Source of the DNA: Parcubacteria group bacterium | GTDB lineage: Bacteria > Patescibacteriota > Minisyncoccia > Moranbacterales > UBA2206 | Length of the DNA: 64,000 bases | Assembly: GCA_041674205.1 (NCBI GenBank) | Contig: JBAYWF010000003.1 | Coordinates: forward strand, 47,221-111,220 | Direction of reading: 5' to 3' | Shown: positions 38,298-62,099 of the stretch, piece by piece | Numbering within the stretch: position 1 is the first letter of the stretch | How the letters are laid out: each line of letters starts with the position of its first letter | Translations under genes and position numbers: made by a program | Notes under the pieces: model-generated | Databases searched by the model: none | What the model was told of the DNA's origin: nothing | Seen by the model: only the letters and a program-made list of their open reading frames with translations

Positions 38298-38394
38298 AAA
38301 ATTCCCTGGATAATAATTTCAAAATCTGAAGCGTGCAGCATTTTAATGGGACGTAGTGGGATCAGATTACCATATCCTGCGATACAAGCCTATT

Positions 38395-38799: not shown

Positions 38800-38827
38800 A
38801 GCGAGAGAGTTAAAAATAGACTTATTT

Positions 38828-38916
38828 CACATAACGTTTCTCGATATCCGACGTTTCAATGAAGTGAAACGAATTGAAATGTGGCTTTAGTCCTCGCGGA
38901 TATTGAGTGTTAGATG
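38828..38916 (-). repeat. attC-like site (R'' CATCTAAC with embedded TAA stop - AC - L'' TCAATATCCGCG ... inner hairpin CGTTTCA/TGAAACG ... L' CGGATATCGA - GAAAC - R' GTTATGTG)
   Basis: R'' is a perfect RYYYAAC; L''/L' 9-bp complementarity; stop codon of Nudix 38910-39488 lies inside R''. Confidence 0.65.
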
Positions 38917-39461
38917 ATGTTTTTGTGTGACACTATTCCACTTAGATATAATAACAATGGCATCAGAGAAGTGCCATCACTAATCTCATTATTAGCGATC
39001 AGTTCTTTTACTTCACTTAATGAAAGCCAATGGATTTCCTTGACTTCGTCTGTGTCGATTTCGGCCTGCTCGCCAGTTTCAACATTACCTAAAATTATGT
39101 GAACATTTTGATTCGACATTCCGTTCGAAGGATTGTAAGAGTAAAGAAGTTTTAATGCCCTCGCTTTAAAACCAACTTCCTCCATTACTTCTCGTTCAGC
39201 GGCTAATAAAATATCTTCACCATTTTCAACGCCACCAGCAGGCAATTCCCATTCAATCTTTTGCGTGGTATAGCGCAAAGACTTGATAAAACAAATTTCG
39301 CTTTTGGCGTTTAGCAATAATACGGCTATTGACTCCTTCGGGTAATCAAGTTGATGATATTTTTCTATAATTTTTCCAGAAGGCATTAAAACTTTGTCGA
39401 TATATAGATTTATCCATTGGCTTTCATAGATTGGTTTTCGATCTAATCGTTTTGGTAGCAT
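38910..39461 (-). CDS. Nudix hydrolase (ADP-ribose pyrophosphatase-like)
   Basis: WELPAGGVENGEDILLAAEREVMEEVGFK Nudix box; start set to ATG MLPKRL (39461); longer ORF begins with GTG at 39488. Confidence 0.85.
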   Translation of the reverse strand: MLPKRLDRKPIYESQWINLYIDKVLMPSGKIIEKYHQLDYPKESIAVLLLNAKSEICFIKSLRYTTQKIEWELPAGGVENGEDILLAAEREVMEEVGFKARALKLLYSYNPSNGMSNQNVHIILGNVETGEQAEIDTDEVKEIHWLSLSEVKELIANNEISDGTSLMPLLLYLSGIVSHKNII

Positions 39462-39496
39462 ATATTTATAATTTAGAGAGTGTCGCACAAAAATTT

Positions 39497-39681
39497 CATC
39501 TAACGTATCGGCACATGCGAAGTTGCGCCGTGGATTAATTGATTATTTTGTTAATATCGCTTTACTTGATTATATCACTAAACTTGCCGTTTCGTCAGCG
39601 CAATTTGGGTTAAAAAAAATTTGCATTCCTTATAAAATCTAATTGCGCAAATTTTTTGAACCGCATGTGCCGTGTTATCGG
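39497..39681 (-). repeat. attC-like site containing the conserved promoter module (R'' CCGATAAC - AC - L'' GGCACATGCG ... L' CGCATGTGCC - GATAC - R' GTTAGATG)
   Basis: perfect 10-bp L''/L' complementarity with a sequence unlike the L boxes of other sites (covariation); R' is a perfect GTTRRRY. Confidence 0.65.
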
Positions 39682-39708
39682 ATGTAAAATTTTTTTAATT
39701 CACTTTTA

Positions 39709-40515
39709 TCAAATAGATTGGGATTTAACAACCTCCAATAACTTTGCATGCAGGGCTGGAGACGACGCAAGAAAGGTGAAATTGTCTTGTGGTTGAGAAA
39801 GGGCATTTGAATAATCAATCGTATTTCCGAAAAAATCTGTATAAATTCCGCCCGCTTCCTCAATAATTATCTGCTGGGCAACATTATCCCATATTTTGCT
39901 CGTGCGATTTAAAAAAGCACCATAATTTCCTTTGGCTACCATAGCAATATCAAAAACACTATTACTGCTTCTTAAGTTTCTAATATTCAAAACTATTTCA
40001 GCTAGCAGCGCACACTCATCTCTTGTAAACTTCGGATTTTCTTGGTGACCATCAATTCCATACGCTACAAGCGCTTTTTTCAAATCGCCTTCTTTGGTAA
40101 TGCAGATTTTTTCGGAATTACAATATGCTCCTTGCCCTTTCTCGGCCACATAAATTTCGGAAAAGTTTGGCAAAGCTAGTCCACCAGCAATCGGAACATT
40201 ATTTTTTAACAATCCAAGCATTATCCCGTACAGCGGCGTTCCGTTGGCGAAGTTGCTAGTGCCGTCAATTGGATCAATGACCCATGTAAAAACTGACTTT
40301 TTATCAATCACTCCAGCTTCCTCATCAATGATGTTATGCTCCGGAAATTTGGCTTGGATTTTTCCAATCAATAATTTACCGATTTCTAAGTCAGTTTCCG
40401 TAAGTACCTGATTATTATCATCTTCCTTGGTGATGCCAGCAACTTTGCCAAAACTTTTTCTTGCAACGTCAGAAGCTTCTTTCAGAGATTGAGTAATGAA
40501 ATCCTTGTATTCCAT
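39709..40515 (-). CDS. inositol monophosphatase family protein, cassette-borne paralog of 20545-21366
   Basis: WVIDPIDGTSNFANGTPLYGIMLGL; lower GC than the core copy; flanked by 35-bp inverted repeats 39672-39708 / 40521-40556. Confidence 0.9.
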   Translation of the reverse strand: MEYKDFITQSLKEASDVARKSFGKVAGITKEDDNNQVLTETDLEIGKLLIGKIQAKFPEHNIIDEEAGVIDKKSVFTWVIDPIDGTSNFANGTPLYGIMLGLLKNNVPIAGGLALPNFSEIYVAEKGQGAYCNSEKICITKEGDLKKALVAYGIDGHQENPKFTRDECALLAEIVLNIRNLRSSNSVFDIAMVAKGNYGAFLNRTSKIWDNVAQQIIIEEAGGIYTDFFGNTIDYSNALSQPQDNFTFLASSPALHAKLLEVVKSQSI

Positions 40516-40548
40516 AATGTTAAAAAAGTGAATTAAAAAAATTTTATT

Positions 40549-40633
40549 TCCGATAACTCGTTTATGCGCGAAATTTGTTTCGTATAATGCTCGATAATTT
40601 GTTTGTTATGCTAAATTATTGCGCGTTATCCGG
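40549..40633 (-). repeat. attC/attI-like boundary site between murJ and first cassette (CCGGATAAC ... GTTATCGG)
   Basis: R''-like CCGGATAAC-GC-GCAATAATTT and R' GAGTTATCGG separated by about 70 nt, immediately after the murJ stop. Confidence 0.4.
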
Positions 40634-40689
40634 ATTTATTTTAATCCCTAAAACTTGCCTGCCGCTTTTTTCTAGAGTATGTACATCTG

Positions 40690-48906: not shown

Positions 48907-48970
48907 ATTTGTTGAATTCGTCGCGATCGACTTTTTCCGAGAGCCGGTGTTTGATTTCAATAACTTCATC

Positions 48971-49156
48971 TTAAACCCGTGAAGGCCTTCTGTTGACTTC
49001 GGCTAGTTTCAATTTCATTCCGCCGATAACTTCCAATATCAAATCGACCTTTTCTGTCAGGCCGGCACATTGCTCGATAGCGATCGCGCCTTGGCTTTTT
49101 ATCTCCTCAAACATCGCCAAGATATGATCTTCCGGATAATTTTTCTTACTTTTCAT
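48971..49156 (-). CDS. small hypothetical protein
   Basis: 61-aa ORF between the GT4 and histidine-kinase genes; no motif. Confidence 0.3.
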   Translation of the reverse strand: MKSKKNYPEDHILAMFEEIKSQGAIAIEQCAGLTEKVDLILEVIGGMKLKLAEVNRRPSRV

Positions 49157-49285
49157 GTTTTTTATTCCTATCTCTCAGCGATTTTCATGAATCAATTATA
49201 CTTCTTTCAAATTTCGATGTCAATCAGCCAAAAAACCCGGAAAAAATTCCGGGTCCGGTCCGGTTTTTCCATTCCGGCAAGCGGA

Positions 49286-51127
49286 TCATCCGACCTGCTT
49301 TGCGATTTCTTTCGGGGTTATGATCGGCAGTTCCACGATGAATTGCGAACCTTTACCTTCGCCTTCCGACTCCACCCAGATGCGCCCGCCGTTGCCTTCG
49401 ATGAAGCCTTTGCACAGATACAAACCCAGTCCGGTGCCGCCGGCATTCAGGCGGCTGGTATCCAAGCCTCTCGAAAATTTAGCGAAAAGATGCGGGATTT
49501 CCTCTTTGGGAATGCCGATGCCGGTATCGGAAATGGTGATCCTGACCACCGGCCCGCTGATGTTTATGCTTTTTTCCTCCGGATTGCTGGTGACTGGCGG
49601 GACATAGCCGGATTTTTCCGCCTGTGTCAGAGCCAAGGTGACGCCGCCCGCCGGGCAATATTTCACCGCGTTATCCACCAGATTGGAAACCGCCTCGCGG
49701 ATGACCTTGCCGTCGATGGTGAGCTCCGGCAATGGGGTTTCCGGTTTTTCATATTTCAAATACAGGCCGTTATCCTTGGCTTTGATGAACAAGGTGTCCA
49801 TCACCTCCTGGCAGAGGTCTTCGATTTTCCATTTGGCGAAATCATATTTCATACCGCCGGATTCGATTTTGGAAGCGGCGAAAAGATCCTCGATCAAAAG
49901 ACCCATATTCTTGATGACAGTCAGGGTTTTGCCCAGCGCGTCCTTCTGCCCGGAAGATATTTCCCCATAGGAGCCTTCTTCGACCATCGACACATACCCC
50001 CGGATGCTGGTAAGCGGTCCGCGCAGGTCATGGGAAGCTCTCGCGATGAAGTCGGTTTTGGCCTGGTCGAGTTTTTTGAGTTCGACGTTAGCTACCGCCA
50101 GTTTGTCGGAAGTTTTCTGCAACTCGTCTTTCTTTTCTCCGAGTTCTTTGTTGGCGATGAACAGTTTCACGTTCTTGACGTTGATCTCCCGGTTGGCGGT
50201 TTGCAGTTCTTCCTTCTGTTCCACTTCTTTCTTGACCGATTTGATGAGATAGTAGCCGAAGACAAAAGACAAAAACAAAGTGATGCCGGTCAGGACCCGG
50301 TTGGTGTTGTTCCTGATAAAAGCGAATTGGGAAGCGATCAGGATGACCTGGGTGGCCACTAAGGCCTGGGCTCCCAGGAGCTTGATGTTGAAAGCTTTGA
50401 ATTTAACGATGAGGTATCCAAGGAAAAGAATGAAAACTGTCATTCCAAATAAGCCATATTGTTCAATCTCAAAAGCATACAGATAACCTTTTTCATCAAG
50501 ATAGCTAGCTAGAAATCCCGCAATAAAAAAAGAAAGGAAAAATAATAATAATCCTATAGAAGCATACCTAATTTTTTTCCTTTCATCTCCCCACGCTTTT
50601 CGATAGCCAAAAAAAGAAAAAATTATAGTTAAAAAAGCAAAGAATAATTCCAAAAAAAATATATAATAATCATAGATTTTTACAATCCCCGGACCAACCA
50701 TTGGCTCACAAATAGGCATATAAAATCCACTAGAATTTTTCAAATTAAACAAAATCGCCGGCATAATTATCATAGCTAGAAATATTTTAAATCCAATATT
50801 AATATCCTTTTTGTTGATAAAAACATAGATAAAATAAAAACACAAAAGAAAAAGCAAGGGATCTAAAATTCCAAGCAGAGACCAGAAAAACATAATCAAA
50901 CTACTATCCACATTTGTCCAAATAATAAGATTGAAAAATGTCCACAAGAAAAAAACAGCTGAAAGGGACAAAAGAATTTTACTCGCCAAATTCCTACTTC
51001 TATAAAAAACAAAAAAACCAAATAGCAAAGCAATCAATGCTGTTGGGATATGTGAGTAGTATAAAAGATGCGGAACTGAGTTAGAAAAAACTAAATATAA
51101 TGGAGCAGGTATGTCAGTACAAAACAT
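49286..51127 (-). CDS. sensor histidine kinase with large polytopic N-terminal membrane domain
   Basis: HisKA H-box ASHDLRGPLTSIRGYV; HATPase_c N/G1/G2 boxes (DNAVKY, DTGIGI, GGTGLGL); about 10 N-terminal TM helices; no response regulator adjacent. Confidence 0.85.
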   Translation of the reverse strand: MFCTDIPAPLYLVFSNSVPHLLYYSHIPTALIALLFGFFVFYRSRNLASKILLSLSAVFFLWTFFNLIIWTNVDSSLIMFFWSLLGILDPLLFLLCFYFIYVFINKKDINIGFKIFLAMIIMPAILFNLKNSSGFYMPICEPMVGPGIVKIYDYYIFFLELFFAFLTIIFSFFGYRKAWGDERKKIRYASIGLLLFFLSFFIAGFLASYLDEKGYLYAFEIEQYGLFGMTVFILFLGYLIVKFKAFNIKLLGAQALVATQVILIASQFAFIRNNTNRVLTGITLFLSFVFGYYLIKSVKKEVEQKEELQTANREINVKNVKLFIANKELGEKKDELQKTSDKLAVANVELKKLDQAKTDFIARASHDLRGPLTSIRGYVSMVEEGSYGEISSGQKDALGKTLTVIKNMGLLIEDLFAASKIESGGMKYDFAKWKIEDLCQEVMDTLFIKAKDNGLYLKYEKPETPLPELTIDGKVIREAVSNLVDNAVKYCPAGGVTLALTQAEKSGYVPPVTSNPEEKSINISGPVVRITISDTGIGIPKEEIPHLFAKFSRGLDTSRLNAGGTGLGLYLCKGFIEGNGGRIWVESEGEGKGSQFIVELPIITPKEIAKQVG

Positions 51128-51169
51128 TTATATTTTTACCTTTAAATAATTAAGTTTCAAATTATTATA

Positions 51170-51667
51170 TTATACATTCATGTATTTTTTATTTTTTTTG
51201 AAATATTCTGGATTTTTCCAATCATTGCCCGTAATTATCTTGCGGCAATTCTTTGATCCACAAAGACAGGGCATCTTATATTCCGGGTCAGTCACTGAAA
51301 ATCCATAGTCATGCGTTAGTTCTTCTCCAGATTTAACATTCTTTATTAAAATCAAACTTCCTTTTTTGTCGTATCCCATATTTGGTTCACAACTATGATT
51401 ACCGAGCCATGCTATCGGCATATAATTCATATTGGGAACTGCATAAAAACCATCTTGGACTTGAGTCCCAAAATGGCCTACAACTTCTTTTGTTATTCTG
51501 TCTAATTTTTCATATACATCCTTACCAAAAAACTTATCAGAATATGAGAAATCATGATCTATAATAATTGTACCTTTTTTTAATGATCTTAAGGCAAACA
51601 AACCTGCTTCACCAGGAAGCATTTTTGATGGCTTAACTCCTATTATTACAGGGGGGAATTTAAACAT
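51170..51667 (-). CDS. SET-domain protein (putative protein-lysine methyltransferase)
   Basis: GLFALRSLKKGTII, NHSCEPN, ELTHDYG and post-SET CLCGSKNCRK are the four SET-domain signature blocks. Confidence 0.8.
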   Translation of the reverse strand: MFKFPPVIIGVKPSKMLPGEAGLFALRSLKKGTIIIDHDFSYSDKFFGKDVYEKLDRITKEVVGHFGTQVQDGFYAVPNMNYMPIAWLGNHSCEPNMGYDKKGSLILIKNVKSGEELTHDYGFSVTDPEYKMPCLCGSKNCRKIITGNDWKNPEYFKKNKKYMNV

Positions 51668-51671
51668 ATTA

Positions 51672-52454
51672 TTATTTTATTAATTTAATTTTTAGATTAA
51701 AATTATTCGCACAATCAATTATATGTTTATTTACACCTGGCGGATAACTCCACCAATAAAAATCCTCATCATCAGTTTGATCTTCCGGATATAAACGCAC
51801 TATCAATGGCCTTAACCCAAATTCTTTCTCCACTCTTTCAATATTCGGCAAAACTATCTTTTCCACAAATCCAGCTTCTCCTTTTTCCCTGTCATCGAAA
51901 GAAAAAGTCTCAAACAAAATTCCGTGAGCAATCAGATGAAGCATCGTGTAATAATAATAACCTGAAACATCTTGAACTTTTTTTCTCCATTCCGGATTGT
52001 CATATATTTCCATTTCATAGCCGGAAATTTTGCAAAGATTGTGATGGAAATCAACCAGTTTTTCTCCATTTTTCAAAACACACTCATTCAATTTCTTTTT
52101 TTCATTCGTATGGAAATCCATCACATCGACAGTCGCTTTTTCGCCATTTTCCAATGTCACACGCAAACGCCCAAGCCCTTTCTTTTCTTCATTAAAAGAA
52201 ACGAAAATATCCTCGCTCTCCTCCCAAGCCAATGGCTCCGCCCCGACATATTTGGCGCATTGGTAGAGAAACACAAAACCATTATCTGGCGAAGCGACTT
52301 GCCGGTTCAAAACCGCCCTCGGCATATCTTTAAAGGGCGGCAAGAACTTATCCCCCAACTCCTCCTCGATCCTCTTCCTCAGCTCGACATCCGCCCAGCG
52401 TTTTTTCAGTTCTTCCCTGGCTTCGTCCAAGGACACATAGATACCATCCGCCAT
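51672..52454 (-). CDS. hypothetical protein, co-transcribed upstream partner of the SET-domain gene
   Basis: 260 aa, 4-nt gap to the SET gene, no motif recognised. Confidence 0.5.
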   Translation of the reverse strand: MADGIYVSLDEAREELKKRWADVELRKRIEEELGDKFLPPFKDMPRAVLNRQVASPDNGFVFLYQCAKYVGAEPLAWEESEDIFVSFNEEKKGLGRLRVTLENGEKATVDVMDFHTNEKKKLNECVLKNGEKLVDFHHNLCKISGYEMEIYDNPEWRKKVQDVSGYYYYTMLHLIAHGILFETFSFDDREKGEAGFVEKIVLPNIERVEKEFGLRPLIVRLYPEDQTDDEDFYWWSYPPGVNKHIIDCANNFNLKIKLIK

Positions 52455-52575
52455 AATTTTACCCTTAAGATTTTCCGCTTTTTATGATTCCATTATACCA
52501 CAAACCCCCGGAATTGATAAAAGACACCGCGACCCGCGCGATGCCTTTTTTTTGTTGCCATATATATATGAGCTC

Positions 52576-53484
52576 TCACTTTTTGTGGTCTATCTTGAAG
52601 CTCGGCGAGGTAACGGAAACCTTGGGAAATTCATTGACCGTGATGCGGATTTTAGCCTTGTCCGTATCTTTTTTGATGATATCACGGAAAGGCTTGTCCT
52701 CCATATCCCAGCCCTTGGTTCCGTCGTTTTTTGTTGAAGATGCCAAGGTATACCAGCTTCCTCCCCCATTCAAGGAATATTCGATCTTGACCGTGGTGCT
52801 TTTGGGGACATTGGTCGTGTCCCAATCGATCGAATGTTCGCGATCGGTTTTCCAGGTGCCGCCGACCGGATCCTTGATGACGATTGACATCTTGGGCGGA
52901 GGCGGAACATATTTCTTGACCGTGAGATTGGCATATTCGTCAGTGTCATCCCTGTTAGAAATATATTTCTGGCCGCTGTCATGACTGATGATTTTGGCAT
53001 AGATATAATACTCGCCCAAATCATCAGGAGTCCGCAAAGGTTCTCCGTCCGAATCTTCGGTTTTCCGGTCTTGTAACATTTCGCCGCCTTGGATTTCATC
53101 GATCCAATCGGAAGCGATGTATTCATCATCACTATCACCGAAGATATAGTCACGAGACCTGTAATAACTGGTTTCCACATCCCTGGCTGGATCGTCTCCG
53201 GTATTTTCCAGTTCGATATGGATATGATAGCGGACGTCCGGCTCCTTAGACAGCTGGTGCTCGGAATAGCGATTACTGTCATCGGAGAGTTCAAGGTGCT
53301 TGACTTTGACGCGGGCGTCAGAAGCGCAATCATCTTCTCCGCCACATTCAGCATCAGGATTTTTTCCGATATCCCACAATAGCTGCCTTACCTCCTGATT
53401 AAGATTGTTTGCCCAGACGTTAGGAACGTTAAACGAAGCAAACAGCAACACGAAAACCATATGACCAACGAAACGTTTTAGCAT
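52576..53484 (-). CDS. hypothetical secreted acidic protein
   Basis: start moved to MLKRFVGHMVFVLLFASFNVPNVWA (signal peptide) preceded by GAGGAGG; Asp/Glu-rich. Confidence 0.5.
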   Translation of the reverse strand: MLKRFVGHMVFVLLFASFNVPNVWANNLNQEVRQLLWDIGKNPDAECGGEDDCASDARVKVKHLELSDDSNRYSEHQLSKEPDVRYHIHIELENTGDDPARDVETSYYRSRDYIFGDSDDEYIASDWIDEIQGGEMLQDRKTEDSDGEPLRTPDDLGEYYIYAKIISHDSGQKYISNRDDTDEYANLTVKKYVPPPPKMSIVIKDPVGGTWKTDREHSIDWDTTNVPKSTTVKIEYSLNGGGSWYTLASSTKNDGTKGWDMEDKPFRDIIKKDTDKAKIRITVNEFPKVSVTSPSFKIDHKK

Positions 53485-53540
53485 TTTTCCTCCTCGAATC
53501 AATTCTGATTTGATTTTTTGTCATATCCGCTACATAGCCA

Positions 53541-53933
53541 TTATGGTATCGGGACGAATTTAACTCTGTACAACACAGGCAATATCCGCTGCAAAATGCT
53601 TGAGATTTGCGGATAACGCTCCAATATGTAGACAGGGAGGCCTGTGTTTTCAAGCAGATTGCAGAAATGACAGGCAACCTCAGGATCGACTCCTTGCGTA
53701 TTGAAAGCCTTTTTTGCTTCCCAAGCCTGGATTGGAGTAAATTTAACTATTTCAGAGCCTGGGATTGATAGATATACTTGGGATTTCTCTTCCACCCAGG
53801 AACGCATCCTATCCATTGAATTGCAGTCGAAGCATTCACATTCAGGCTCTCCAGGATTGTATTTATCCCAAAAAATGACACACACCGAATTGCTTCCCTT
53901 ATCGAACCAAAAAATCACATGAACATTCGACAC
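53541..53933 (-). CDS. hypothetical Cys-rich protein
   Basis: 130-aa ORF with CECFDCNSMD and CHFC motifs. Confidence 0.35.
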   Translation of the reverse strand: MSNVHVIFWFDKGSNSVCVIFWDKYNPGEPECECFDCNSMDRMRSWVEEKSQVYLSIPGSEIVKFTPIQAWEAKKAFNTQGVDPEVACHFCNLLENTGLPVYILERYPQISSILQRILPVLYRVKFVPIP

Positions 53934-54125
53934 TTCTAGACCGCTTTATACAGAAAAAAAATGTCGATTAAAATGCAAAGCGTATGGAATTTCCGTACCA
54001 GGAAAACAACCCGGTGCATTTTTCATTCGTGTAATAGTATGAGACTCGACTCCATCTTTAACATCGTATTCGTTAGATAAATGTGGAGTTTCTCCAAGAT
54101 AACCCTCGTAGTCATTTAGACTATA

Positions 54126-54350
54126 TCAATTATCTGGCATATGCTTCTTTCTCAATTCATCAAACTTATTCCAGAAATCATCCGGATCACAGTTTGAATC
54201 TTGGGATATGTCTTGAATTTTTTTAGCAAGATCATTCAGAAGATTAGGCATCATGCCATCATTACTCGAACTTGAAAACGCATTAATCGCCATTGCAAGT
54301 CCACAAAAAAACAGACCAACCGTAAAAATCAATACCTTTCCTAGCCTCAT
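54126..54350 (-). CDS. small secreted protein
   Basis: 74 aa, signal peptide MRLGKVLIFTVGLFFCGLAMA. Confidence 0.4.
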   Translation of the reverse strand: MRLGKVLIFTVGLFFCGLAMAINAFSSSSNDGMMPNLLNDLAKKIQDISQDSNCDPDDFWNKFDELRKKHMPDN

Positions 54351-54382
54351 TTCTTTCGTCTCCTTCTTTGAATCGATTGATT

Positions 54383-55069
54383 TTAATCCAGCTCACCTTT
54401 AGTTTCCAAGCCGAATCTGCCTCTTAGATATTCAATGAAAACATCCTCCTTGCCAATATCATCATAATATTCAACAGCAATCACATAATGTTGCCAACCT
54501 CCGACCCAAAAACGCATTATGATTCCCATCCTGGAATATTCAATGCTGCCCATATCCTCTTCGAATTGCCCTTCGAGAAGTCCTATTGTTTCATGATTTT
54601 TGAATTTTTCCGACATGATTTGCAAATATGAAATGGAAACACGACCTTTTGGATTGTTGTCTGATAAGTTTTCTGGCACTCCAAACAGATCCTCCCTCCT
54701 TTTTCTTATTTTATACACATCATATCCGTGCAATTGCATTGATGATTCTTTTCTATACAAAGAAACCTCGATGCCAATCTTCTTGAAAAAATCAATAAGC
54801 ATTTGGATATTAATTTCTCGCGAATTATATCTGACACCTATTATATCTTTTCCAAAATTATTCAATTTTTCTACAAAGAAAATTTCATAGATACTTTTTG
54901 GCATCCTCATATTATCCGGTACCCAACAAAGAAAAACATCATGAATAAATTTGCCCAGGGATCCATACTCCTCTATAATCTCCGCCTTGACCGACAAAAC
55001 CTCGAAACCTTCCGGAGCAAATGCCTCACTCCAAAATCCAATTTTATTTGATTCAGTACATATCTTCAT
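54383..55069 (-). CDS. hypothetical protein
   Basis: 228-aa ORF, no motif. Confidence 0.45.
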   Translation of the reverse strand: MKICTESNKIGFWSEAFAPEGFEVLSVKAEIIEEYGSLGKFIHDVFLCWVPDNMRMPKSIYEIFFVEKLNNFGKDIIGVRYNSREINIQMLIDFFKKIGIEVSLYRKESSMQLHGYDVYKIRKRREDLFGVPENLSDNNPKGRVSISYLQIMSEKFKNHETIGLLEGQFEEDMGSIEYSRMGIIMRFWVGGWQHYVIAVEYYDDIGKEDVFIEYLRGRFGLETKGELD

Positions 55070-55190
55070 ACGTTTTCTCCCGATGTGTTAGTTATTATCC
55101 TCTATTCAGAGCTTACTTGACCGGTATTAGATTGTCAAAGGATAACGGGGTCAGGAGCCTTTTTTATGGGCAGGTAATCAGGGTCAGGAT

Positions 55191-55325
55191 CTTTTTAAGC
55201 CGTCCTCCTTGTTTTAGCGTTGAAATCAGACCTAGTTTTTTAACTATCTTTTTTATCCAACTATCATCCCCGAATGGCCGGTTTTTTTAATGGAATATCC
55301 GGTTGTTTCAATTTTTTCTTATTCA
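55191..55325. repeat. about 135-bp direct repeat, copy A (partner at 57831-57965)
   Basis: about 92% identity over ...TTTTAAGCCGTCC.CCTTGTTTTAGCGTTGAAATCAGACCTAGTTTTT.A.CTATCTTTTTTATCCAACTATCAT...GGAATATCCGGTTGTTTCAATTTTTTCTT. Confidence 0.85.
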
Positions 55326-55528
55326 CCTTTTTGTTTTTTGCATAATTTTTATTTGAATAAAAGGCACCTGACCCCATTGTTTCGGAAGATTCAATCTTAG
55401 GAGCTAACCTTCGGGATTAGAGCTATATACATTTGACAGAAAAAGACTGGAAGTGTTACATTACGCTTAATATTACTTTCTTATTAACACGCTATGCCTT
55501 GTTTAACCCGTGTCCTAAAAAATAAAAT

Positions 55529-56536
55529 ATGTTAAGCAAGAAAAATGGATTCAACTCTAATGTAACTTTCGAGCGAATATCCTCTTTGACAAAATATCAG
55601 GTCACAAAAAAAATTGGCGTGCGACGTGATGAGTTGGCTTTTTCGGAAGCTATTGAGCTTGCTAAAGATATTACGGAATATCAAAACCAACTGCGATCTA
55701 TCGGAATTCCAATTCCACCAATCGACGAACTGGATGTAAAATACTTTCCAGAAACTGAAAAAGCTTCAATCGCCCTTTTAACACCTTGGGCTGGCGAAGA
55801 TGTTGAGTCAGTTATTCTTTCATTAGATACGGAACAAGACAAAAAAACAATAGAGTGGATTATAAAAGAAATGTGCCGTATAACATTACTAGCCTGCACC
55901 AAAAGAACAAAGGATGGGGAGTTATCTGTCGGCATTGACGCAAAGACAAATAATTTCACTGTAGCAATAGACAATTCCGGCAGGCGGACTATGTCTTATG
56001 TCGATCAATATCCTCCCCACTATTGGAAAAATGGAGTGCCTCTTTTGGAGTGGGTACCCCTAAAATCCCCTCTTGGCAAAGAATTGAATCGATTTAAATA
56101 TTTTGACTGGCGCGGTGTTTTTCTGACGCTAACATCCCAGTTGTGCCGAATTAGCCCATCGCTTAAAAAACAAGTGGAAGTAATCGCCCTTGATGAATTC
56201 AAGAAATGTTTCGCAGAATCTGAATTTAAAGAGTTCCATAATCAATTCATCGAGCTTCCTTGGATTATTTTCCGTAAAATGTTAGAAAAAAATAAATTAA
56301 CCCAAGCTGAACAGATAATTATGCAGTGCGTTTATGATAAAGTATTTGGCGTCAGATATAGCTTCTACACGCTTCGTGAAATAGCATTGGAGATGGCTAT
56401 GCGTCAATTAATTTCCCTGGATGAATTGCATAAATTATTTTTTGATTTATATTTTGAAGATGAAGAGTTTATGCCAGAACGATGGAAAAGCATCCAGGAA
56501 CGATTGTGTCGATTCGTTAGACGCCCCCTCCCATAA
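55529..56536 (+). CDS. hypothetical protein
   Basis: 335-aa ORF, one of only three plus-strand genes; no motif. Confidence 0.5.
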   Translation: MLSKKNGFNSNVTFERISSLTKYQVTKKIGVRRDELAFSEAIELAKDITEYQNQLRSIGIPIPPIDELDVKYFPETEKASIALLTPWAGEDVESVILSLDTEQDKKTIEWIIKEMCRITLLACTKRTKDGELSVGIDAKTNNFTVAIDNSGRRTMSYVDQYPPHYWKNGVPLLEWVPLKSPLGKELNRFKYFDWRGVFLTLTSQLCRISPSLKKQVEVIALDEFKKCFAESEFKEFHNQFIELPWIIFRKMLEKNKLTQAEQIIMQCVYDKVFGVRYSFYTLREIALEMAMRQLISLDELHKLFFDLYFEDEEFMPERWKSIQERLCRFVRRPLP

Positions 56537-56569
56537 GTTAGAATTAATTTTTAAATTTACTAAATATCT

Positions 56570-57034
56570 ATGGCAAACTACATAAAATGGATCCGGGAAA
56601 GAGTTGGTCACGACCCGATAATACTAAACGCTTCTGCAGCCTTTGTTCTGAATGATGAAAATCAAGTTCTTTTATTGCGCCGCTCTGATCGCAATGAAGA
56701 AGTTTGGGGAGTGCCAGGCGGCATGATGGAAATAGGTGAATCAGCGGAGGATACGATGAAACGAGAAGTATTGGAAGAAACAGGGCTAAACGTAAAAGTT
56801 GAAAAATTTCTTGGAGCCTATACTAAAGACAGGTTTGACTCTTACCCGAATGGGGACAGGGCATATGTGATCCTTTTTGTTTTTGTGTGCCGCGTGATCG
56901 ATGGGGCACCTATCGCTAATAATGAAGAGGCGGCGGAACTGCGCTACTTTGATCCAGATAATTTTCCATCAACCTTCAGACATAAACAAGTTTTGGAAGA
57001 TTATAAATCCAACTTAAGCGGAATAATCAGATAA
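56570..57034 (+). CDS. Nudix hydrolase
   Basis: WGVPGGMMEIGESAEDTMKREVLEETGL Nudix box. Confidence 0.85.
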   Translation: MANYIKWIRERVGHDPIILNASAAFVLNDENQVLLLRRSDRNEEVWGVPGGMMEIGESAEDTMKREVLEETGLNVKVEKFLGAYTKDRFDSYPNGDRAYVILFVFVCRVIDGAPIANNEEAAELRYFDPDNFPSTFRHKQVLEDYKSNLSGIIR

Positions 57035-57065
57035 AGATAATTAAAAACAATTCTATATAAATAAA

Positions 57066-57107
57066 ATGAGCTTTGGTTGTCATACCAAAGCTCATCACTT
57101 TTCTTCC
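57066..57107. terminator. bidirectional intrinsic terminator between convergent Nudix and NMNAT-like genes
   Basis: perfect 12-bp stem ATGAGCTTTGGT/ACCAAAGCTCAT, 6-nt loop, T-rich tracts on both sides. Confidence 0.7.
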
Positions 57108-57112
57108 CCATT

Positions 57113-57721
57113 TTAAAATGATTGTTCTTGCTTGGTACGGTAGACTTCTTCCATCCTAGCCGGACCATTGATTCGCAAGAAAACTTCATAAGCTCCCTGT
57201 GGAATAAATTCTTTCCACGATTCTCCGCCTTCCATAACCTTTTTTATGATTCTTGCATTATGCAGTTTAAAAGGAGGAGAAACGGATTCATAATTTCGTC
57301 CTAGGAGCTCTGGAAATATCTTACCTCTCAACGCGTCAATACTTGCGTCGCCATCTTTTTTTTCTGGCCGTACAATCATGAATTCCGCAGGAGGATATCT
57401 CACGTTGAATTCTTTATCAAAGTACGGTCTTTTTGAAATATCACAGCTGATACGATGGTTCAGCTTACGACCTACTGTCCAGGCGTCCCACATCTCCTTT
57501 ACCTCATTGGGTGTAAAAGGATTTTTGCCTGGCGCATAAGATGTTTTTTCCGATGCTTTAATGTACTCCTCCCACCTTCCGATATCGAACCATTCTGGTT
57601 TTGGCGTGTTGTATACTACGCATATAGTAACAAATTGCCATTTATTGAGAATGGTCTCTACCGTACAAACATGGGCAATCGTGGGAGGCTGAAAGCGTCC
57701 CTGAAACAAAGCGTATTTCAT
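57113..57721 (-). CDS. cytidylyltransferase-like nucleotidyltransferase (NMN/NaMN adenylyltransferase NadM-like)
   Basis: N-terminal ALFQGRFQPPTIAH fits the GxFxPxHxGH nucleotidyltransferase motif of NadM-type NMNATs. Confidence 0.55.
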   Translation of the reverse strand: MKYALFQGRFQPPTIAHVCTVETILNKWQFVTICVVYNTPKPEWFDIGRWEEYIKASEKTSYAPGKNPFTPNEVKEMWDAWTVGRKLNHRISCDISKRPYFDKEFNVRYPPAEFMIVRPEKKDGDASIDALRGKIFPELLGRNYESVSPPFKLHNARIIKKVMEGGESWKEFIPQGAYEVFLRINGPARMEEVYRTKQEQSF

Positions 57722-57821
57722 TGATCCTCCTTTGTGTTTTGGGGAAGAAGGTGGATATTTAAAGTATTATATGTTTGCCTATAGTTGTCAATATGACGTT
57801 TGATTCTAAAAAATAATGGGG

Positions 57822-58049
57822 TTAAGCATATTTTTTAAGCCGTCCCCCTTGTTTTAGCGTTGAAATCAGACCTAGTTTTTCAGCTATCTTTTTTATCCAA
57901 CTATCATTTACGAATAGCCGGCCTTTTTTAATGGAATATCCGGTTGTTTCAATTTTTTCTTCTTCATTTTTTTTGCAAAGTATTCCGAGGTATTCCTGCC
58001 ATAACCGAAGCTTAGCATGTTTTTTACGGCATCTGACCTCTTTATTCAA
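57822..58049 (-). CDS. small ORF whose 3' end lies in direct-repeat copy B (doubtful)
   Basis: 75-aa ORF; homologous frame in copy A is disrupted. Confidence 0.2.
   Translation of the reverse strand: MNKEVRCRKKHAKLRLWQEYLGILCKKNEEEKIETTGYSIKKGRLFVNDSWIKKIAEKLGLISTLKQGGRLKKYA
57831..57965. repeat. about 135-bp direct repeat, copy B
   Basis: see copy A at 55191-55325. Confidence 0.85.
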
Positions 58050-58080
58050 TCGGGGTGCTATGGCATGTTTTGACTGGAAT

Positions 58081-58110
58081 GAAGCGAAAAACCGGTTTTA
58101 GCCGGTTTTT
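58081..58110. terminator. intrinsic terminator after the coiled-coil repeat gene
   Basis: AACCGG TTTTAG CCGGTT hairpin with T-runs on both strands. Confidence 0.5.
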
Positions 58111-58126
58111 TTGAAGTTTACGTTTT

Positions 58127-58648
58127 CTATTTAGCTCTTGCCAACACCAGTTTTTCCAGCTTGACCAATCTTTTCTCAAAAGCCTCCATCTTCTCCGTTT
58201 GATCGATTTTTCCAAGATTCTTTTTCATCTCTTTGAACTCAGATTTCAGATACCGGATCTCGTCATCGATATTGAAGAGATATTCTTTAACCACCTTGAA
58301 GTTTTCATTGGTTTGATCGCGAAATTCAAACAATCCCTTGAAATTTTCATTGGTTTGATCGCGAAATTCAAACAATCCCTTGAAATTTTCATTGGCTTGA
58401 TCGCGAAATTCAAACAATCCCTTGAAGTTTTTGCTTGTCTCATTCCTGAATTCAACCATCTCTCCTTTGAATTCCACAAATTCTTCATTATTGTCATCTA
58501 TTTTTTTATTCAAAGAAGAAAACTGCTCCAAAACCAAAACCAGCTTGGAATTCATATCTTCCAGAACGACGGTCTGCTGATCGCGTTTTGTTTTTTCGAT
58601 TTTCTTTTTCATGCTCCATATTTTAACAAATCGCCTCTGGACAGTCAA
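58127..58648 (-). CDS. coiled-coil protein with tandem 14-aa repeats
   Basis: NFKGLFEFRDQ(A/T)NE repeated 3.5 times, encoded by 42-bp tandem DNA repeats at 58294-58446. Confidence 0.5.
   Translation of the reverse strand: MTVQRRFVKIWSMKKKIEKTKRDQQTVVLEDMNSKLVLVLEQFSSLNKKIDDNNEEFVEFKGEMVEFRNETSKNFKGLFEFRDQANENFKGLFEFRDQTNENFKGLFEFRDQTNENFKVVKEYLFNIDDEIRYLKSEFKEMKKNLGKIDQTEKMEAFEKRLVKLEKLVLARAK
58294..58446 (-). repeat. 42-bp tandem repeat, about 3.6 copies, in-frame within CDS 58127-58648
   Basis: GAAATTCAAACAATCCCTTGAAATTTTCATTGGTTTGATCGC repeated near-perfectly. Confidence 0.9.
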
Positions 58649-58805
58649 ACTTCCGGTTTGAGCCGGTTCTCAGGCATAATTTTCAGGCGGATAATTGGAG
58701 CCAGGCGCCGCAACCTGCGCGATGCCTTGGGAATACCTCCTCATAACAAAGCTTTCTTTTTTTGGCCATTGTTGTTATATTGATTCTATTATTGATAATT
58801 ACCCA

Positions 58806-59294
58806 ATGGAGAAAAACATCATTAAAATCGCCATCGTTATCCGCGACAAAGAAAACCCGGAAAATGTCCTTCTCATTAAGGAAAAGGTTGAAAAAAGCAG
58901 CGTTGCGAAATGGAATATTATAAAAGGAACTTGCGAGACGCAGAAAGAGGATATTTTTGAGGCAGCCGTAAGAGAATGCTTCGAGGAAGCGTCGGTCCAT
59001 ATCAGGATAGAATCTTCCTTGGGCTGTTTTTTTGTTTCAAAAGAAGATGGGTCAACCAGCATCCAATTCAATTTTCTGGCAAGCATCGGCTCGGGGAATA
59101 TCGGAATCCAGGATAAAAATTTCCAAAAGAAGCTAGGTGAAAACATATCGGAAGTGCGATGGTTCGACAAATCAGAAATAGCTGGAATGGATGACTCTGA
59201 ATTTGTTTCACCCCGCACGAAACTTCTTCTCGACAATTGGATGAACGGCCGGACATATCCGCTGGACAGCATATCCGTTATGGAAGAAAAGTAG
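58806..59294 (+). CDS. Nudix hydrolase
   Basis: GTCETQKEDIFEAAVRECFEEASV Nudix box; start moved to MEKNIIKIAIVIR (ATG 58806). Confidence 0.8.
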   Translation: MEKNIIKIAIVIRDKENPENVLLIKEKVEKSSVAKWNIIKGTCETQKEDIFEAAVRECFEEASVHIRIESSLGCFFVSKEDGSTSIQFNFLASIGSGNIGIQDKNFQKKLGENISEVRWFDKSEIAGMDDSEFVSPRTKLLLDNWMNGRTYPLDSISVMEEK

Positions 59295-59381
59295 GAAAAA
59301 AATTATCCTCAAAGGCTGAAGATGTTCAGTCACAACTGTCCGAAATATCCACCGCCATATTTAAAGCACTTTCGGAATATA

Positions 59382-59774
59382 TCACACCCTTTCAAATTCC
59401 TCCTTTATCCATTCCGGGTAAACGCCTTCCAGGACCATATTCTTGTCGATCCAACCATATCCCGTATGTTCGCCGCTCAACTTCAATTCGCCGCCGGCAT
59501 ATTTAGCCAAGAAAGTTATGCCTACCAGATGCAAACCGTCTTTCACGAAACCCCATACTCGCGAAGGACGCCCTATTTCGATATTGATACCCAATTCTTC
59601 CCTGACTTCCCTTTTCAAACTTTCTTCCGCGCTTTCGCCGAATTCCATCCTGCCGCCCGGGATATCGATCCCATTGGGATTTATTTCTTCGGTTCCGCTT
59701 TTATACAAAACCAGATATTTCCCGTCATCGTTTTTTATCAACGCTTTCGTGGCAACGCCGAATTTTCTTTCCAT
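59382..59774 (-). CDS. Nudix hydrolase
   Basis: IPGGRMEFGESAEESLKREVREELGI Nudix box. Confidence 0.85.
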   Translation of the reverse strand: MERKFGVATKALIKNDDGKYLVLYKSGTEEINPNGIDIPGGRMEFGESAEESLKREVREELGINIEIGRPSRVWGFVKDGLHLVGITFLAKYAGGELKLSGEHTGYGWIDKNMVLEGVYPEWIKEEFERV

Positions 59775-59813
59775 TTTTTATTCTAAACCGTTTTAACGCG
59801 GATATTTTTTTAT

Positions 59814-60512
59814 TTATAACTTCCTTTTCAAATACGCATCGATTTCTTTTTCAAAAAAATCAGCCACCTCGGCAAGCGTCGCCGGCTCGATCATTTGCGT
59901 TCCATCAATTTCCGTATTTGAAATATCCTGGGTGTATAGGAGCTGCGCCAAAAAAAGCTTTTCATTGAACAATTCCCCATATGCCTCACTTGATTTTTGC
60001 ACGATATCTTCAAGTTTCGTGATTCTCTTTTTCAAAATCACATACAAATCGACGTAGTCCCGCCAAGCGTTTCGCCTATTCATAGCGTAGGCTTTAGTAA
60101 GCGCCACGCCAAGCGAGGAAATAATCCGCAAAGGGGCATCCGGAAATTCAAGCACGTATTTTTCCAAATCAAAAGGATAGAAAATAAAAGATATTTTTAT
60201 ATCATATTCCGTTATAAACGTGAATTCGTCAGCATTGTTCACTAGCACCTCTTTAACGCGCATTTCTTTTTTAATTTTTGCCGGAAAAGACGCCGGGATT
60301 TCCTTGGCACAAAAAATATCAAAATCATAGGACACCCGATGGCCTAATTGAAGAGCCAGCGCCGTTCCGCCCGATAGATAGCCCAAGGAGCGGAAAGTTG
60401 AAAGTTTTTGAAAAATATTTTCCCTTTCCTGATCAAGGATTTCGAGGTGGAGTTTTTCCATATATGTTTTTAATATATTGCTGGCCGTTTTTGACTTTGA
60501 CACCCAAAACAT
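59814..60512 (-). CDS. AbiEii/AbiGii-family nucleotidyltransferase toxin (DUF1814)
   Basis: YLSGGTALALQLGHRVSYDFDIF matches the GGTAL...R.S.D.D(F/I) core of AbiEii toxins; 232 aa; true start may be the internal MEKLHLEIL. Confidence 0.65.
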   Translation of the reverse strand: MFWVSKSKTASNILKTYMEKLHLEILDQERENIFQKLSTFRSLGYLSGGTALALQLGHRVSYDFDIFCAKEIPASFPAKIKKEMRVKEVLVNNADEFTFITEYDIKISFIFYPFDLEKYVLEFPDAPLRIISSLGVALTKAYAMNRRNAWRDYVDLYVILKKRITKLEDIVQKSSEAYGELFNEKLFLAQLLYTQDISNTEIDGTQMIEPATLAEVADFFEKEIDAYLKRKL

Positions 60513-60744
60513 GTTCGAATAGGTGCAGGACGGACGGCGCGTAGATACCCTTGGCAGGTATTTGGAATTCTTGGCTTATCACATCCCGACCATATTTTTG
60601 AAAAAGTTTCCGCACATCCCGCATCGATCCCAAAGCCAGCGTTTGATGGATAATCAAATGGCGATCCTTGGAAAAATCCAAAACGGCTTCGTTTTTTTTC
60701 AGAAACCAAAAAAGCTTATCCACCTTTAATTTAAGTGCTTCCAT
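60433..60744 (-). CDS. hypothetical small protein, candidate cognate antitoxin of the AbiEii-like gene
   Basis: 103-aa ORF immediately upstream of and overlapping the toxin gene; no motif. Confidence 0.35.
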   Translation of the reverse strand: MEALKLKVDKLFWFLKKNEAVLDFSKDRHLIIHQTLALGSMRDVRKLFQKYGRDVISQEFQIPAKGIYAPSVLHLFEHVLGVKVKNGQQYIKNIYGKTPPRNP

Positions 60745-60794
60745 ACTCGTATATTAGCACAAAACAAGCCAAAAATCAAATCAAAAAGCGCTTT

Positions 60795-62099
60795 TTACAA
60801 CCAGCCTAATTTTTCCAAAAACTCCCGGTCTTTCTTGACGAATTTCATCCCGATATCGGACCGGTAGAACATTTTCGGGATGACGATTTGGTTTATCAGG
60901 TCATAGGTCTTGTCGCGGGCTTCCTCGATCGTTTTTCCGGAACCGGTCACGTGGAGCACGAAGCCTGTCTTGCCAGAAATGTAGTGTTTATCCTGCCCAT
61001 CTTCTTTTTTCCGGGAAACCTCTTCCAAATGGATATGTTTCCAATCATTTTCGTCGAAAGTGTCTTTGAAATTGATTTCCAAACCTTGCGAGGAATATTT
61101 CTGCACGTTCACTTCATATGGGAACGGCGGCACCGCCACCAAGGCCACGATCCCGTATTCCTTTTTGTATTTCAAATCATAGGGCTGGCCGTCCGCGATG
61201 GCTTTCAGGAATTTCCCCCAGGGCGACAGGTGCAGTTCGTCCTGCAATTGCAAAGCTGGAAAACCGAAACGCGCCGTCAATTCCAGCGGATGGGCGCCAT
61301 CTTCGTTGATGATGCAATTGACATCTACATCCCCGCGGAAATTGCCTTTGATCAAAGCCGGTTTCAACTTGTCCAGCAGTTCCTTGAACAGCCGGTTATC
61401 TTCATTGTCGTCATACCACATCAATGTCCCCATCTCGAAAGTTTTCGGCCCGAGATTGCCATTGAACAGCCCCTTGTGTTCGAAGTTGATTTCGATCGGA
61501 CCCGCCCAGTCGGTGCCGTTGAAGTAGCGTCCCACGCCGACTTCCACCCCTTTGACTTTTTTCTGCAAATCGATCGACGCGCATTCTTCCCGGTTGTTTT
61601 CATTGTAATTCCGGAGCATCGAAACGACATCCTTCCCGCTTTTCAAACGCCCGACATAGTTGAAAGTCTTGTCGATGTGGCCGTTTTGTTTGACGACCCA
61701 AGGCCCTTCGTTTTTCTGGACGAAACCGATCACCTCCTCGACACTGCCGAAATTGGTGGACGGGATGATGTTGACTTCGGAAAGGGAGAGGATCTTTTGC
61801 CCGTATTGGCGGTCGTGCTCCAGCCGGTCGCCCATCGCGCTGCCGCCGACCACCGAATAGCCCTTGGCCCGCAAATCGTCCTGGATTTGGCCGAACCCGA
61901 CGCAATCGAACACGATGAGTCCGTCGCTCCCCACCCAGCCCAGCTCGGATTCCCAGTCAGCTATTTTTTCCAACATCCCGTCATAAGCGTGGGCATATTC
62001 CGCCTCTTCGATGAAAATTTTCACTTGGTTCCCCTCTTGTTGCAAACGATAGGCCAGATCGGCGCCGGAAAAATCTTTGGATATTAACAATACGTTCAT
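60795..62099 (-). CDS. PurD-like ATP-grasp protein (phosphoribosylamine-glycine ligase family, divergent)
   Basis: 434 aa; N-terminus MNVLLIS... and C-terminus VTGSGKTIEEARDKTYDLINQIVIPKMFYRSDIG parallel PurD, but the GGREHA substrate loop is replaced by KDFSGADLA. Confidence 0.65.
   Translation of the reverse strand: MNVLLISKDFSGADLAYRLQQEGNQVKIFIEEAEYAHAYDGMLEKIADWESELGWVGSDGLIVFDCVGFGQIQDDLRAKGYSVVGGSAMGDRLEHDRQYGQKILSLSEVNIIPSTNFGSVEEVIGFVQKNEGPWVVKQNGHIDKTFNYVGRLKSGKDVVSMLRNYNENNREECASIDLQKKVKGVEVGVGRYFNGTDWAGPIEINFEHKGLFNGNLGPKTFEMGTLMWYDDNEDNRLFKELLDKLKPALIKGNFRGDVDVNCIINEDGAHPLELTARFGFPALQLQDELHLSPWGKFLKAIADGQPYDLKYKKEYGIVALVAVPPFPYEVNVQKYSSQGLEINFKDTFDENDWKHIHLEEVSRKKEDGQDKHYISGKTGFVLHVTGSGKTIEEARDKTYDLINQIVIPKMFYRSDIGMKFVKKDREFLEKLGWL

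Follow-up and report, generated by a model that had tools for sequence, protein, structure and literature searches.

Within a 64,000-nucleotide stretch of DNA from a Parcubacteria group bacterium (contig JBAYWF010000003.1; this whole stretch is referred to hereafter as the window), a pair of long direct repeats was found to consist of two diverged, directly oriented copies of a mobile-element relic, here designated E, that bracket an accessory cassette of three genes. The same cassette was detected in four lineages (A-D, the window representing lineage A) at three different loci, and long direct repeats of 0.1-0.27 kb accompany it wherever both flanks are visible, with a different sequence each time. 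The origin that we tentatively favour for these repeats is the integration of a circular intermediate by recombination through sequence shared with the chromosome.

A first-pass annotation of the window, made from the sequence alone, had reported direct repeats of about 135 bp and some 92% identity at 55191-55325 and 57831-57965, a delimitation that proved to be essentially right and about 8 nt short on the right-hand side. Repeat finding and BLASTN define a core of 142 alignment columns with 91.5% identity and one 1-nt gap, which is recovered with E-values of 4e-52 to 5e-52 when the repeat is searched against the whole window.

55192-55332, unstranded: core direct repeat, copy A, 91.5% identical to 57832-57973 (E 5e-52).
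57832-57973, unstranded: core direct repeat, copy B, 91.5% identical to copy A.

Besides the indel, the two cores differ at 11 evenly spread mismatches (four C>T, three T>C, and one each of A>G, C>A, G>A and A>C), and the longest exact run between them is 38 nt. Under permissive scoring the match covers 141 of 160 positions, starting at 55175 and 57814, and in a global alignment weak homology reaches 55378 and 58043 across a 30-45 nt indel region, outlining a homology-extended element E of about 200-230 bp (55177-55378 and 57814-58043, in the same orientation). The search for further copies of the repeat was carried out over the 64-kb window, where BLASTN returned no third copy; a multicopy generic intergenic element, which the first-pass annotation had named as a refutation, was therefore not seen, at least over these 64 kb.

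The two-copy arrangement is not an assembly artefact, because an ENA assembly contig (L001, 318 kb, 99.98% identical) shows the identical layout and Logan unitigs of SRR6484325 end exactly at the last unique 31-mers within each repeat copy. Unitig L002 corresponds to 55291-57876 of the window and unitig L015 stops at 55236; L002 is not a circular contig, its ends being explained by the shared 31-mers and presenting no overlap.

Element E is bounded by an inverted GGGGTCAGGnGCCTTTT motif of about 17-24 nt, also written (A)ATAATGGGGTCAGGnGCCTTTT. At the left edge of copy A the motif, as GGGTCAGGnnCTTTTT, is found twice (GGGTCAGGAGCCTTTT at 55149-55164 and GGGTCAGGATCTTTTT at 55182-55197), and a third copy, inverted, lies on its right side (AAAAGGCACCTGACCCC at 55359-55378); a motif scan placed these copies at 55150, 55183 and 55359. 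Copy A is enclosed by 20-nt inverted repeats (55144-55163 and 55359-55378) that are 90% complementary. A 17-bp duplication had previously been described as internal to copy A; the duplication is real, but it sits at and outside the left edge, and the third, inverted copy had been missed.

55144-55378, minus strand: element E copy A, flanked on both sides by the inverted end motif, the left one of which is present in a further tandem copy; non-coding, peptide frame broken.
57814-58043, minus strand: element E copy B, with a degenerate left motif GGGGTTAAGCATATTTTTT and a degenerate right motif ACGGCATCTGACCTC; delimited by aligning it globally to copy A along its full length.
55359-55383, plus strand: right end motif of E copy A, AAAAGGCACCTGACCCCATTGT, which doubles as the left cassette edge; conserved in contig L005 (lineage B).

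The end motif (GGGTCAGG) is confined to the cassette locus in each lineage, and BLASTN and motif scans of the window and of all the loci examined identified no other copy of E or of its motif that would make it a multicopy element. Searches of the repeats and the cassette against Rfam, both at the gathering threshold and at E<=1, did not return any match. In L005, the end motif forms a hairpin (GGTCAGG-N13-CCTGACC, 464-492), the stem of which is kept in a second copy (AGTCAGG...CCTGACT, 3283-3311) through a compensatory change.

An open reading frame (ORF) that runs across copy B is probably no real gene.

57822-58049, minus strand: ORF75, 75 aa, open frame across E copy B; TTG start, no Shine-Dalgarno sequence.

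The core of copy B spans the last 47 or so codons and the stop of this ORF (its 3' two-thirds), and in copy A the coding sequence of this peptide is interrupted by a frameshift and a stop, which bears out the initial description of a small ORF overlapped at its 3' end by copy B and disrupted in copy A. ORF75 has no family match in Pfam, NCBIfam or PADLOC, and a search with a chimeric query against an index of 5.8 billion proteins, together with a further database search, matched it to itself only. Because ORF75 matches only itself and lacks a ribosome-binding site, we regard E as a non-coding relic.

The three genes reported between the repeats, encoding a 335-aa protein and a Nudix protein on the plus strand and a NadM-like protein on the minus strand, were found as claimed by both ORF analysis and profile matches. 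The cassette comprises 2.45-2.6 kb and is self-contained, in that its two convergent transcription units each have a promoter and share a terminator.

55433-55462, plus strand: promoter-like site of the kinase-like/Nudix operon (TTGACA, 18 nt, TACATT with TG); conserved in L005 and L018.
55529-56536, plus strand: 335-aa protein of predicted protein-kinase-like fold, from a very rare family (AlphaFold2 model, invariant residues).
56570-57034, plus strand: Nudix hydrolase, 154 aa (PF00293, E 1.1e-23; PDB 3smd, E 6e-20).
57065-57096, unstranded: bidirectional terminator hairpin between the convergent genes, with a 12-13 bp stem, on both strands.
57113-57721, minus strand: nucleotidyltransferase of 202 aa resembling nicotinamide mononucleotide (NMN) adenylyltransferase (NMNAT), with the motif GRFQPPTIAH (weak profile matches).
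57763-57791, minus strand: promoter-like site of the NMNAT-like gene (TTGACA, 17 nt, AATACT); conserved in L005 and L009.

No family in Pfam, NCBIfam or PADLOC matches the 335-aa protein, which has six homologues among 5.8 billion proteins; in a check for a phage origin, its family had no relatives in the IMG/VR viral contigs. Its AlphaFold2 model (predicted local distance difference test score, pLDDT, 75; predicted template modelling score, pTM, 0.77) and the invariance of D137-x-K139-x-x-N142 and D159 across the family indicate a protein-kinase-like fold with a catalytic D-x-K-x-x-N loop and a metal-binding Asp. The Nudix protein matches PF00293 with 84 bits against a cut-off of 21. For the 202-aa protein, the matches to NF002243 (E 1.9e-8, 34 bits for a cut-off of 127) and TIGR01527 (E 7.7e-6, 25.6 bits for a cut-off of 181) both fall below the curated cut-offs, and its similarity to the archaeal NMNAT of PDB 1m8j (E 0.07) is weak and located at both termini; a weak resemblance to cytidylyltransferases was also seen. 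Its family has 94 representatives at E<=1e-3 among 1.84 billion proteins, in which G8, R9 and H17 are invariant and GRFQPPTIAH is conserved; T-I-A-H, containing the invariant H17, stands in place of (H/T)xGH, and the HNSxIR of the family reads HNARII in the window. Distant relatives (P0159, P0163, P0194, P0217 and P0185) are fused to an N-terminal P-loop kinase of the Zeta_toxin type or to a C-terminal Nudix domain. No recombinase or transposase is present among the three cassette genes, which encode kinase-fold, Nudix and nucleotidyltransferase-like proteins, and the search for defence systems with PADLOC matched only the generic Nudix candidate PDC-S07.

These gene assignments and the mismatch spectrum bear on the notion of a diversity-generating retroelement, in which the two repeats would be the template and the variable repeat, pairing a non-coding copy with one located in the 3' end of a target ORF. 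The geometry of the locus, with repeats of about 140 bp and some 92% identity, a non-coding copy and a copy at an ORF 3' end, fits this notion. The locus encodes no reverse transcriptase, however, and the 335-aa protein has a kinase fold; moreover, the 11 mismatches are mostly transitions, run in both directions and are not adenine-specific, and they are accompanied by an indel. On the basis of the mismatch spectrum and the absent reverse transcriptase this candidate was rejected, and we consider its likelihood to be negligible.

The four lineages carrying the cassette are the following.

Lineage A: the window; PurD locus.
Lineage B: L005/L011, metagenome-assembled genome JAUXSI010000023.1; cassette 85.9% identical over 2367 nt; PurD-side context as in A.
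Lineage C: L007/L009/L010; 74.6% identical; inside a methyltransferase / PGA_cap / nitroreductase operon.
Lineage D: L018; 72.6% identical to A and 84.9% to C; beside an acetyltransferase gene, on a contig that holds the left flank only.

The conserved block spans 55431-57791 of the window in the comparison with L005 (85.9%) and 55517-57731 in the comparison with L009 (74.6%). In lineage A the flanking repeat is the 142-bp, 91.5% identical sequence described above; in lineage B it is a sequence of 118 bp and about 96% identity (475-592 and 3293-3409), at the shared 31-mers of which a unitig from another sample (L006) breaks, and the right copy of which ends truncated at a terminator. The first-pass annotation had named as a refutation that all related genomes carry the same arrangement, and this is not the case: lineage B has it with a differently built repeat, and two close relatives (L016 and L017) lack the whole surrounding island. 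In lineage C the repeat is host DNA, a fragment of a PGA_cap gene, and extends over about 270 bp, of which 134 nt are 93% identical and 94 nt are 85% identical, with a 45-nt palindromic insertion between these two parts. The right copy in this lineage is a 107-codon PGA_cap stump, ATGA-coupled to the upstream methyltransferase gene, that stops where about 40 nt of the E tail motif start (tail of L005 compared with that of L009, z 4.3), and the left copy is a complete PGA_cap gene with a new 8-codon N-terminus, yielding the layout X(1-100) / cassette / X(8-381). Across codons 9-82 the two copies show 14 synonymous and 9 non-synonymous differences, with a ratio of non-synonymous to synonymous rates (dN/dS) of about 0.2 by our own rough estimate.

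The cassette itself is bounded by inverted motif copies (55359-55383 on the left and 57812-57836 on the right), the left one of which is missing in lineages C and D. Its left edge is ragged: conservation runs through the motif in A and B, at least to the -35 box in D, and to a point between the -35 and -10 boxes in C.

Several further features were observed in these contigs. The 45-nt palindrome of lineage C (CCACACCTT...AAGGTGTGG; L009 8444-8483, equivalent to L007 10623-10662) is in frame in the truncated PGA_cap copy and not present in the full copy, and may be a tiny hairpin insertion element. L010 (Ga0075965_132), otherwise 100% identical to L009 in this region, lacks 117 bp in frame in the NMNAT-like gene (L009 7960-8075), a natural 39-codon deletion variant. 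On the minus strand of L005 (about 35-250), just to the left of E, a promoter-like site (TTGACA/TATAAT) precedes a GC-rich, ORF-less stretch of about 190 nt and an intrinsic terminator; the region has no Rfam match and may correspond to a small RNA. In L018, a GC-rich and structured-looking leader with no Rfam match at E<=1 lies upstream of the acetyltransferase gene (1160-1340).

The diversity of flanking sequences also speaks to the possibility that the repeats are an attachment site duplicated by a site-specific integrase, with the cassette as a small genomic island or satellite. A direct repeat that overlaps the 3' end of an ORF is reminiscent of e14 in icd (PMC13626634). Against this, no integrase or recombinase domain was detected by Pfam, NCBIfam or PADLOC between 47.8 and 64 kb, encompassing the cassette and the island, and there is no tRNA or tmRNA near the cassette, the sole tRNA of the window being located at 18147-18220; furthermore, the repeat sequence varies among lineages A, B and C, and the left cassette edge is imprecise. 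With no recombinase, no tRNA and a core that differs among lineages, an integrase attachment site was excluded as a candidate, and we deem this origin highly improbable. A classical target-site duplication (2-15 bp, of fixed length) was likewise excluded, as the repeats span 118-270 bp, vary in length by lineage and, in the window, include the inverted motif, and no transposase is encoded; no short target duplication was found at the repeats either. The earlier suggestion of insertion through duplication of a target or attachment site thus holds in so far as the cassette is a discrete accessory unit, found at three loci and, in the window, within an island absent from two relatives, but neither an attachment site nor a classical target-site duplication is present.

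The source of E was examined through the left element of L005. The motif and the leader to the ATG are kept between E of the window and L005 (30 of 37 positions identical, z 10.2, with none of 2000 shuffles reaching the score), and in L005 this shared motif, leader and ATG are followed by a 49-codon ORF (MPRIIRANVAGMTYHAINRANAGMQIFDNDEDYQLF...). TBLASTN searches of 7.3 Gb of plasmids with this ORF returned best matches with E-values of 1e-3 to 0.9, aligning residue 1 to residue 1 with Y1_Tnp proteins. One of the targets (H1, TBLASTN E 1e-3) carries PF01797 at E 3.5e-6, and another (H2), annotated as 'transposase', carries PF01797 at E 7.6e-14 and aligns with the ORF in pairwise BLASTP at E 2e-8, with 34% identity over 47 aa. 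Most likely, E arose by deletion from an IS200/RAYT-type (Y1 HUH) transposase gene that had inverted motifs on its flanks. Between lineages A and B the E interiors cannot be aligned (z -0.3), as expected if they are different deletion derivatives of one parent, with B retaining the N-terminus and A a C-terminal part.

Three lines of evidence were considered for the origin of the repeats. The repeats appear to be younger than the split between lineages A and B, having been formed or homogenised long after it, because neutral DNA of these lineages is beyond alignment, as seen in the non-functional spacers and the E interiors, and yet the copies within each genome are 91-96% alike. The ragged left edge points to recombination rather than to a precise cut defined by a transposase or other enzyme. 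Lastly, the in-situ decay of one of the lineage C copies would give a dN/dS of about 0.6, and the probability of nine or fewer non-synonymous changes among 23 would be about 0.01 (binomial calculated by hand); because this excess of synonymous differences is unlike in-situ decay, the copies look like two functional alleles, one of which arrived with the cassette.

The simplest scheme covering the ragged edge, the young repeats and the lineage C alleles would be one in which the cassette, having no recombinase, moves as a passenger. A circle with the cassette and a single copy of a sequence also present in the chromosome would recombine within that sequence in a Campbell-type event, and its integration would leave one repeat copy on each side. 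The shared sequence would be E in the lineage of the window and the PGA_cap fragment in lineage C. Homologous recombination between the copies would subsequently lead to cassette loss, or would re-form the circle and leave a solo site. The first-pass annotation had likewise put forward a unit deletable by recombination between the repeats; the repeats would indeed allow homologous deletion, but no single-copy form was found in the assemblies.

A number of points weigh against this reading, both in its identification of E and in the circle itself. The link between E of the window and a Y1 transposase is indirect: no Y1_Tnp domain is recognisable in the E copies of the window, ORF75 has no Pfam, NCBIfam or PDB match, and its C-terminus gives no significant alignment with a Y1 protein, showing only a by-eye resemblance to the tails of Y1 proteins. 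The 49-aa peptide of L005 and a 45-aa peptide have no direct match in Pfam, NCBIfam or the PDB, and the tail motif comparison between the window and L009 is marginal (z 2.0, 106 of 2000 shuffles). As for the circle, the scheme does not account for the first capture of the PGA_cap fragment and requires one illegitimate event or more for each new locus; the similarity of the copies within a genome could just as well be maintained by gene conversion between ancestral flanking copies. The argument from synonymous and non-synonymous changes is based on 23 differences, and three independent loci are known, with both flanks visible at two. Evidence of excision was sought in assembled contigs: neither a single-repeat (deleted) form nor a circular form was present in those examined, and look-ups of the left-flank gene and of ORF75 returned the two-copy state or no record.

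Part of the same evidence can be read as duplication at insertion, in which a 0.1-0.3 kb stretch of the target would have been copied through staggered-break fill-in or replicative template switching and the copies would since have diverged. Differing repeats do flank the same cassette at two independent loci, and the layout of lineage C fits this process, with a truncated copy in the native operon and a full copy that has gained 8 new N-terminal codons; template switching would fit both the ragged left edge and a possible microhomology at the right junction. However, the window repeat includes the E end motif, whereas in lineage C the same motif lies on the cassette side, outside the duplicated target. 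Lineages A and B share the locus and have cassettes of about 86% identity, yet their repeats are young and differently built, which would also call for independent recent re-insertions or gene conversion. Nor is the synonymous excess in lineage C predicted by the in-situ decay of one copy, and no duplicating enzyme is encoded here. We know of no enzyme that makes such long duplications, and overall we consider this explanation unlikely. More improbable still is a form of it in which insertion by the cassette, or by a trans-acting enzyme recognising its GGGGTCAGG end motif (such as a Y1 HUH protein encoded elsewhere in the genome), would itself duplicate 0.1-0.3 kb of arbitrary targets.

The evidence from lineages A and B is also compatible with an ancient composite element, now immobile, in which two full-length IS200/RAYT-type genes decayed and gene conversion kept the relics alike, the lineage C repeats being unrelated remains of tandem PGA_cap paralogues. 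Two direct relics with the same end motifs are present in A and B at a syntenic locus, where inheritance looks vertical since the divergence of the cassettes (14%) matches that of housekeeping genes (about 12%), and the low dN/dS in lineage C also fits two once-functional paralogues. This account nonetheless seems doubtful: lineage C would have to be explained by a coincidence of its own; the window repeats share no long identical tract, so any conversion between them cannot be recent; the cassette has clearly moved to a different locus two or more times; and the right copy of lineage B is truncated at a terminator and has not been converted.

The proposed circle-mediated integration resembles the pseudo-compound transposons and translocatable units of the IS26/IS6 family, in which a passenger and one insertion sequence (IS) copy form a circle that re-enters beside or through another copy, with no need for a short target duplication (PMC7986276). 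As in these units, two directly oriented E copies, both relics, flank passenger genes in the window and in L005. On the other hand, E is about 0.2 kb long and has no transposase, so only host recombination could act; it appears to derive from a Y1 HUH rather than a DDE IS6 transposase; the lineage C repeat is a host gene fragment; and no circle was seen in the contigs. The structure hence works like a pseudo-compound transposon with decayed flanking IS copies but, because it has no transposase and its relic seems to be Y1 HUH-derived, it is not a member of that family.

RAYT genes are flanked by inverted REP/REPIN sequences (PMC3116915, PMC3337134, PMC5581495). The Y1-transposase-like ORF of L005 is similarly bracketed by a short inverted motif that forms a hairpin, with a compensatory change between copies. 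Unlike REP sequences, the motif is not multicopy, being found at this locus alone in 64 kb; the gene is a 49-codon stump, and no GTAG/CGTC-type tag was recognised. Membership of E in the IS200/RAYT group is not established.

When the e14 prophage, inserted in icd with an icdC fragment, is excised, a hybrid is formed by recombination of the two copies (Hill et al. 1989, summarised in PMC13626634). Here too a duplicated and slightly diverged gene end flanks the inserted DNA, and in lineage C the interrupted gene stays functional via the duplicated part. The e14 element, however, has its own integrase and a constant target, whereas the cassette has no integrase and varied targets, and lineage C duplicates the 5' end of the gene where the e14 case involves the 3' end. 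Mobile insertion cassettes, which consist of passenger genes between IS-type inverted repeats without a transposase, are comparable in that the window cassette is bounded by inverted motif copies, but differ from it in that it shows no short target duplications and its left motif is missing in lineages C and D. To our knowledge, no cognate transposase for the cassette motif has been described.

The cassette and its repeats are contained in an island of this Candidatus Moranbacteria genome, located between the gene for a GT4 glycosyltransferase, which ends at 48907, and a PurD-like gene.

48908-60795, unstranded: low-GC, strain-specific island of 11.9 kb that includes the cassette with its repeats; not present in L016 or L017.

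The GC content of the island is 0.32-0.45, compared with about 0.48 in its flanks. In L016 (GCA_030679995.1) and L017 (GCA_034366505.1), with flanking genes about 87-91% identical to those of the window, 221 bp separate the PurD-like and glycosyltransferase genes and there is no island. Homologues of the 335-aa protein (P0001) and of the PurD-like protein are labelled Candidatus Moranbacteria or Moraniibacteriota, and the distant PurD-like relatives P0010 and P0011 show no synteny and are uninformative. The island is a mosaic: L005 keeps the cassette, a coiled-coil gene and PurD without the content found at 58650-60795 in the window, and in L016 just the promoter and the initial codons of the coiled-coil gene are left.

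The 58650-60795 segment, between the coiled-coil and PurD genes, contains an AbiEii/DUF6922 toxin-antitoxin pair and two extra Nudix genes, one on the plus strand (58695-59294) and one on the minus strand (59382-59774), so that three Nudix genes lie within 3.2 kb at this locus. The coiled-coil ORF (58127-58648, minus strand) harbours a 42-bp (14-aa) tandem repeat at 58294-58458, the count of which varies, with one unit fewer in the near-identical ENA contig than in the window and two units in the L005 orthologue. Elsewhere in the island, a gene for a SET-domain, lysine methyltransferase-like protein (51170-51667) adjoins a histidine kinase gene. A second low-GC island of 10.6 kb (30050-40684, GC 0.32-0.41) is absent from L016, where LepA directly follows MurJ.

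Regarding the function of the cassette, the fusion of the NMNAT-like domain to a kinase or a Nudix domain in other proteins suggests that kinase, nucleotidyltransferase and Nudix form a recurrent functional trio. The combination is reminiscent of the NadM-Nudix and NadR types of nicotinamide adenine dinucleotide (NAD) salvage, which also join an NMN-adenylyltransferase-like protein with Nudix and kinase functions, and the weak similarity of the 202-aa protein is specifically to archaeal NMNAT; the cassette differs in having three separate genes, a kinase of protein-kinase-like rather than P-loop fold, and scores below the curated cut-offs. The cassette would therefore perform a phosphorylate-then-adenylylate salvage, most likely of NAD (ribosyl-nicotinamide to NMN to NAD), with the Nudix pyrophosphatase acting in turnover, and a nucleotide-sugar role serving the neighbouring glycosyltransferases is a possible alternative. 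A literature search for NMNAT/Nudix cassettes in the Candidate Phyla Radiation (CPR) retrieved nothing relevant.

The cassette joins two very rare protein families, the kinase-fold family with six known members and the NMNAT-like family with fewer than 100 representatives, and its enzymes add new and very rare members to superfamilies already known. The genomes of CPR bacteria are tiny and contain few recognisable mobile elements, and the exchange of accessory metabolism among them is poorly known. In organisms without de novo cofactor synthesis, the module may supply NAD salvage. Its unusual trait is the recurrence, around a single recombinase-less cassette, of long flanking repeats that differ locally. 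Should the repeats be made by the insertion itself, this would represent a new mechanism, and motif-guided duplicating insertion would amount to an undescribed form of recombinase-less gene-cassette mobility in the CPR in which the interrupted genes are kept functional. As they stand, locally derived long repeats around a recombinase-less module at different loci suggest that cassettes may enter and leave CPR genomes through a simple, homology-driven process.

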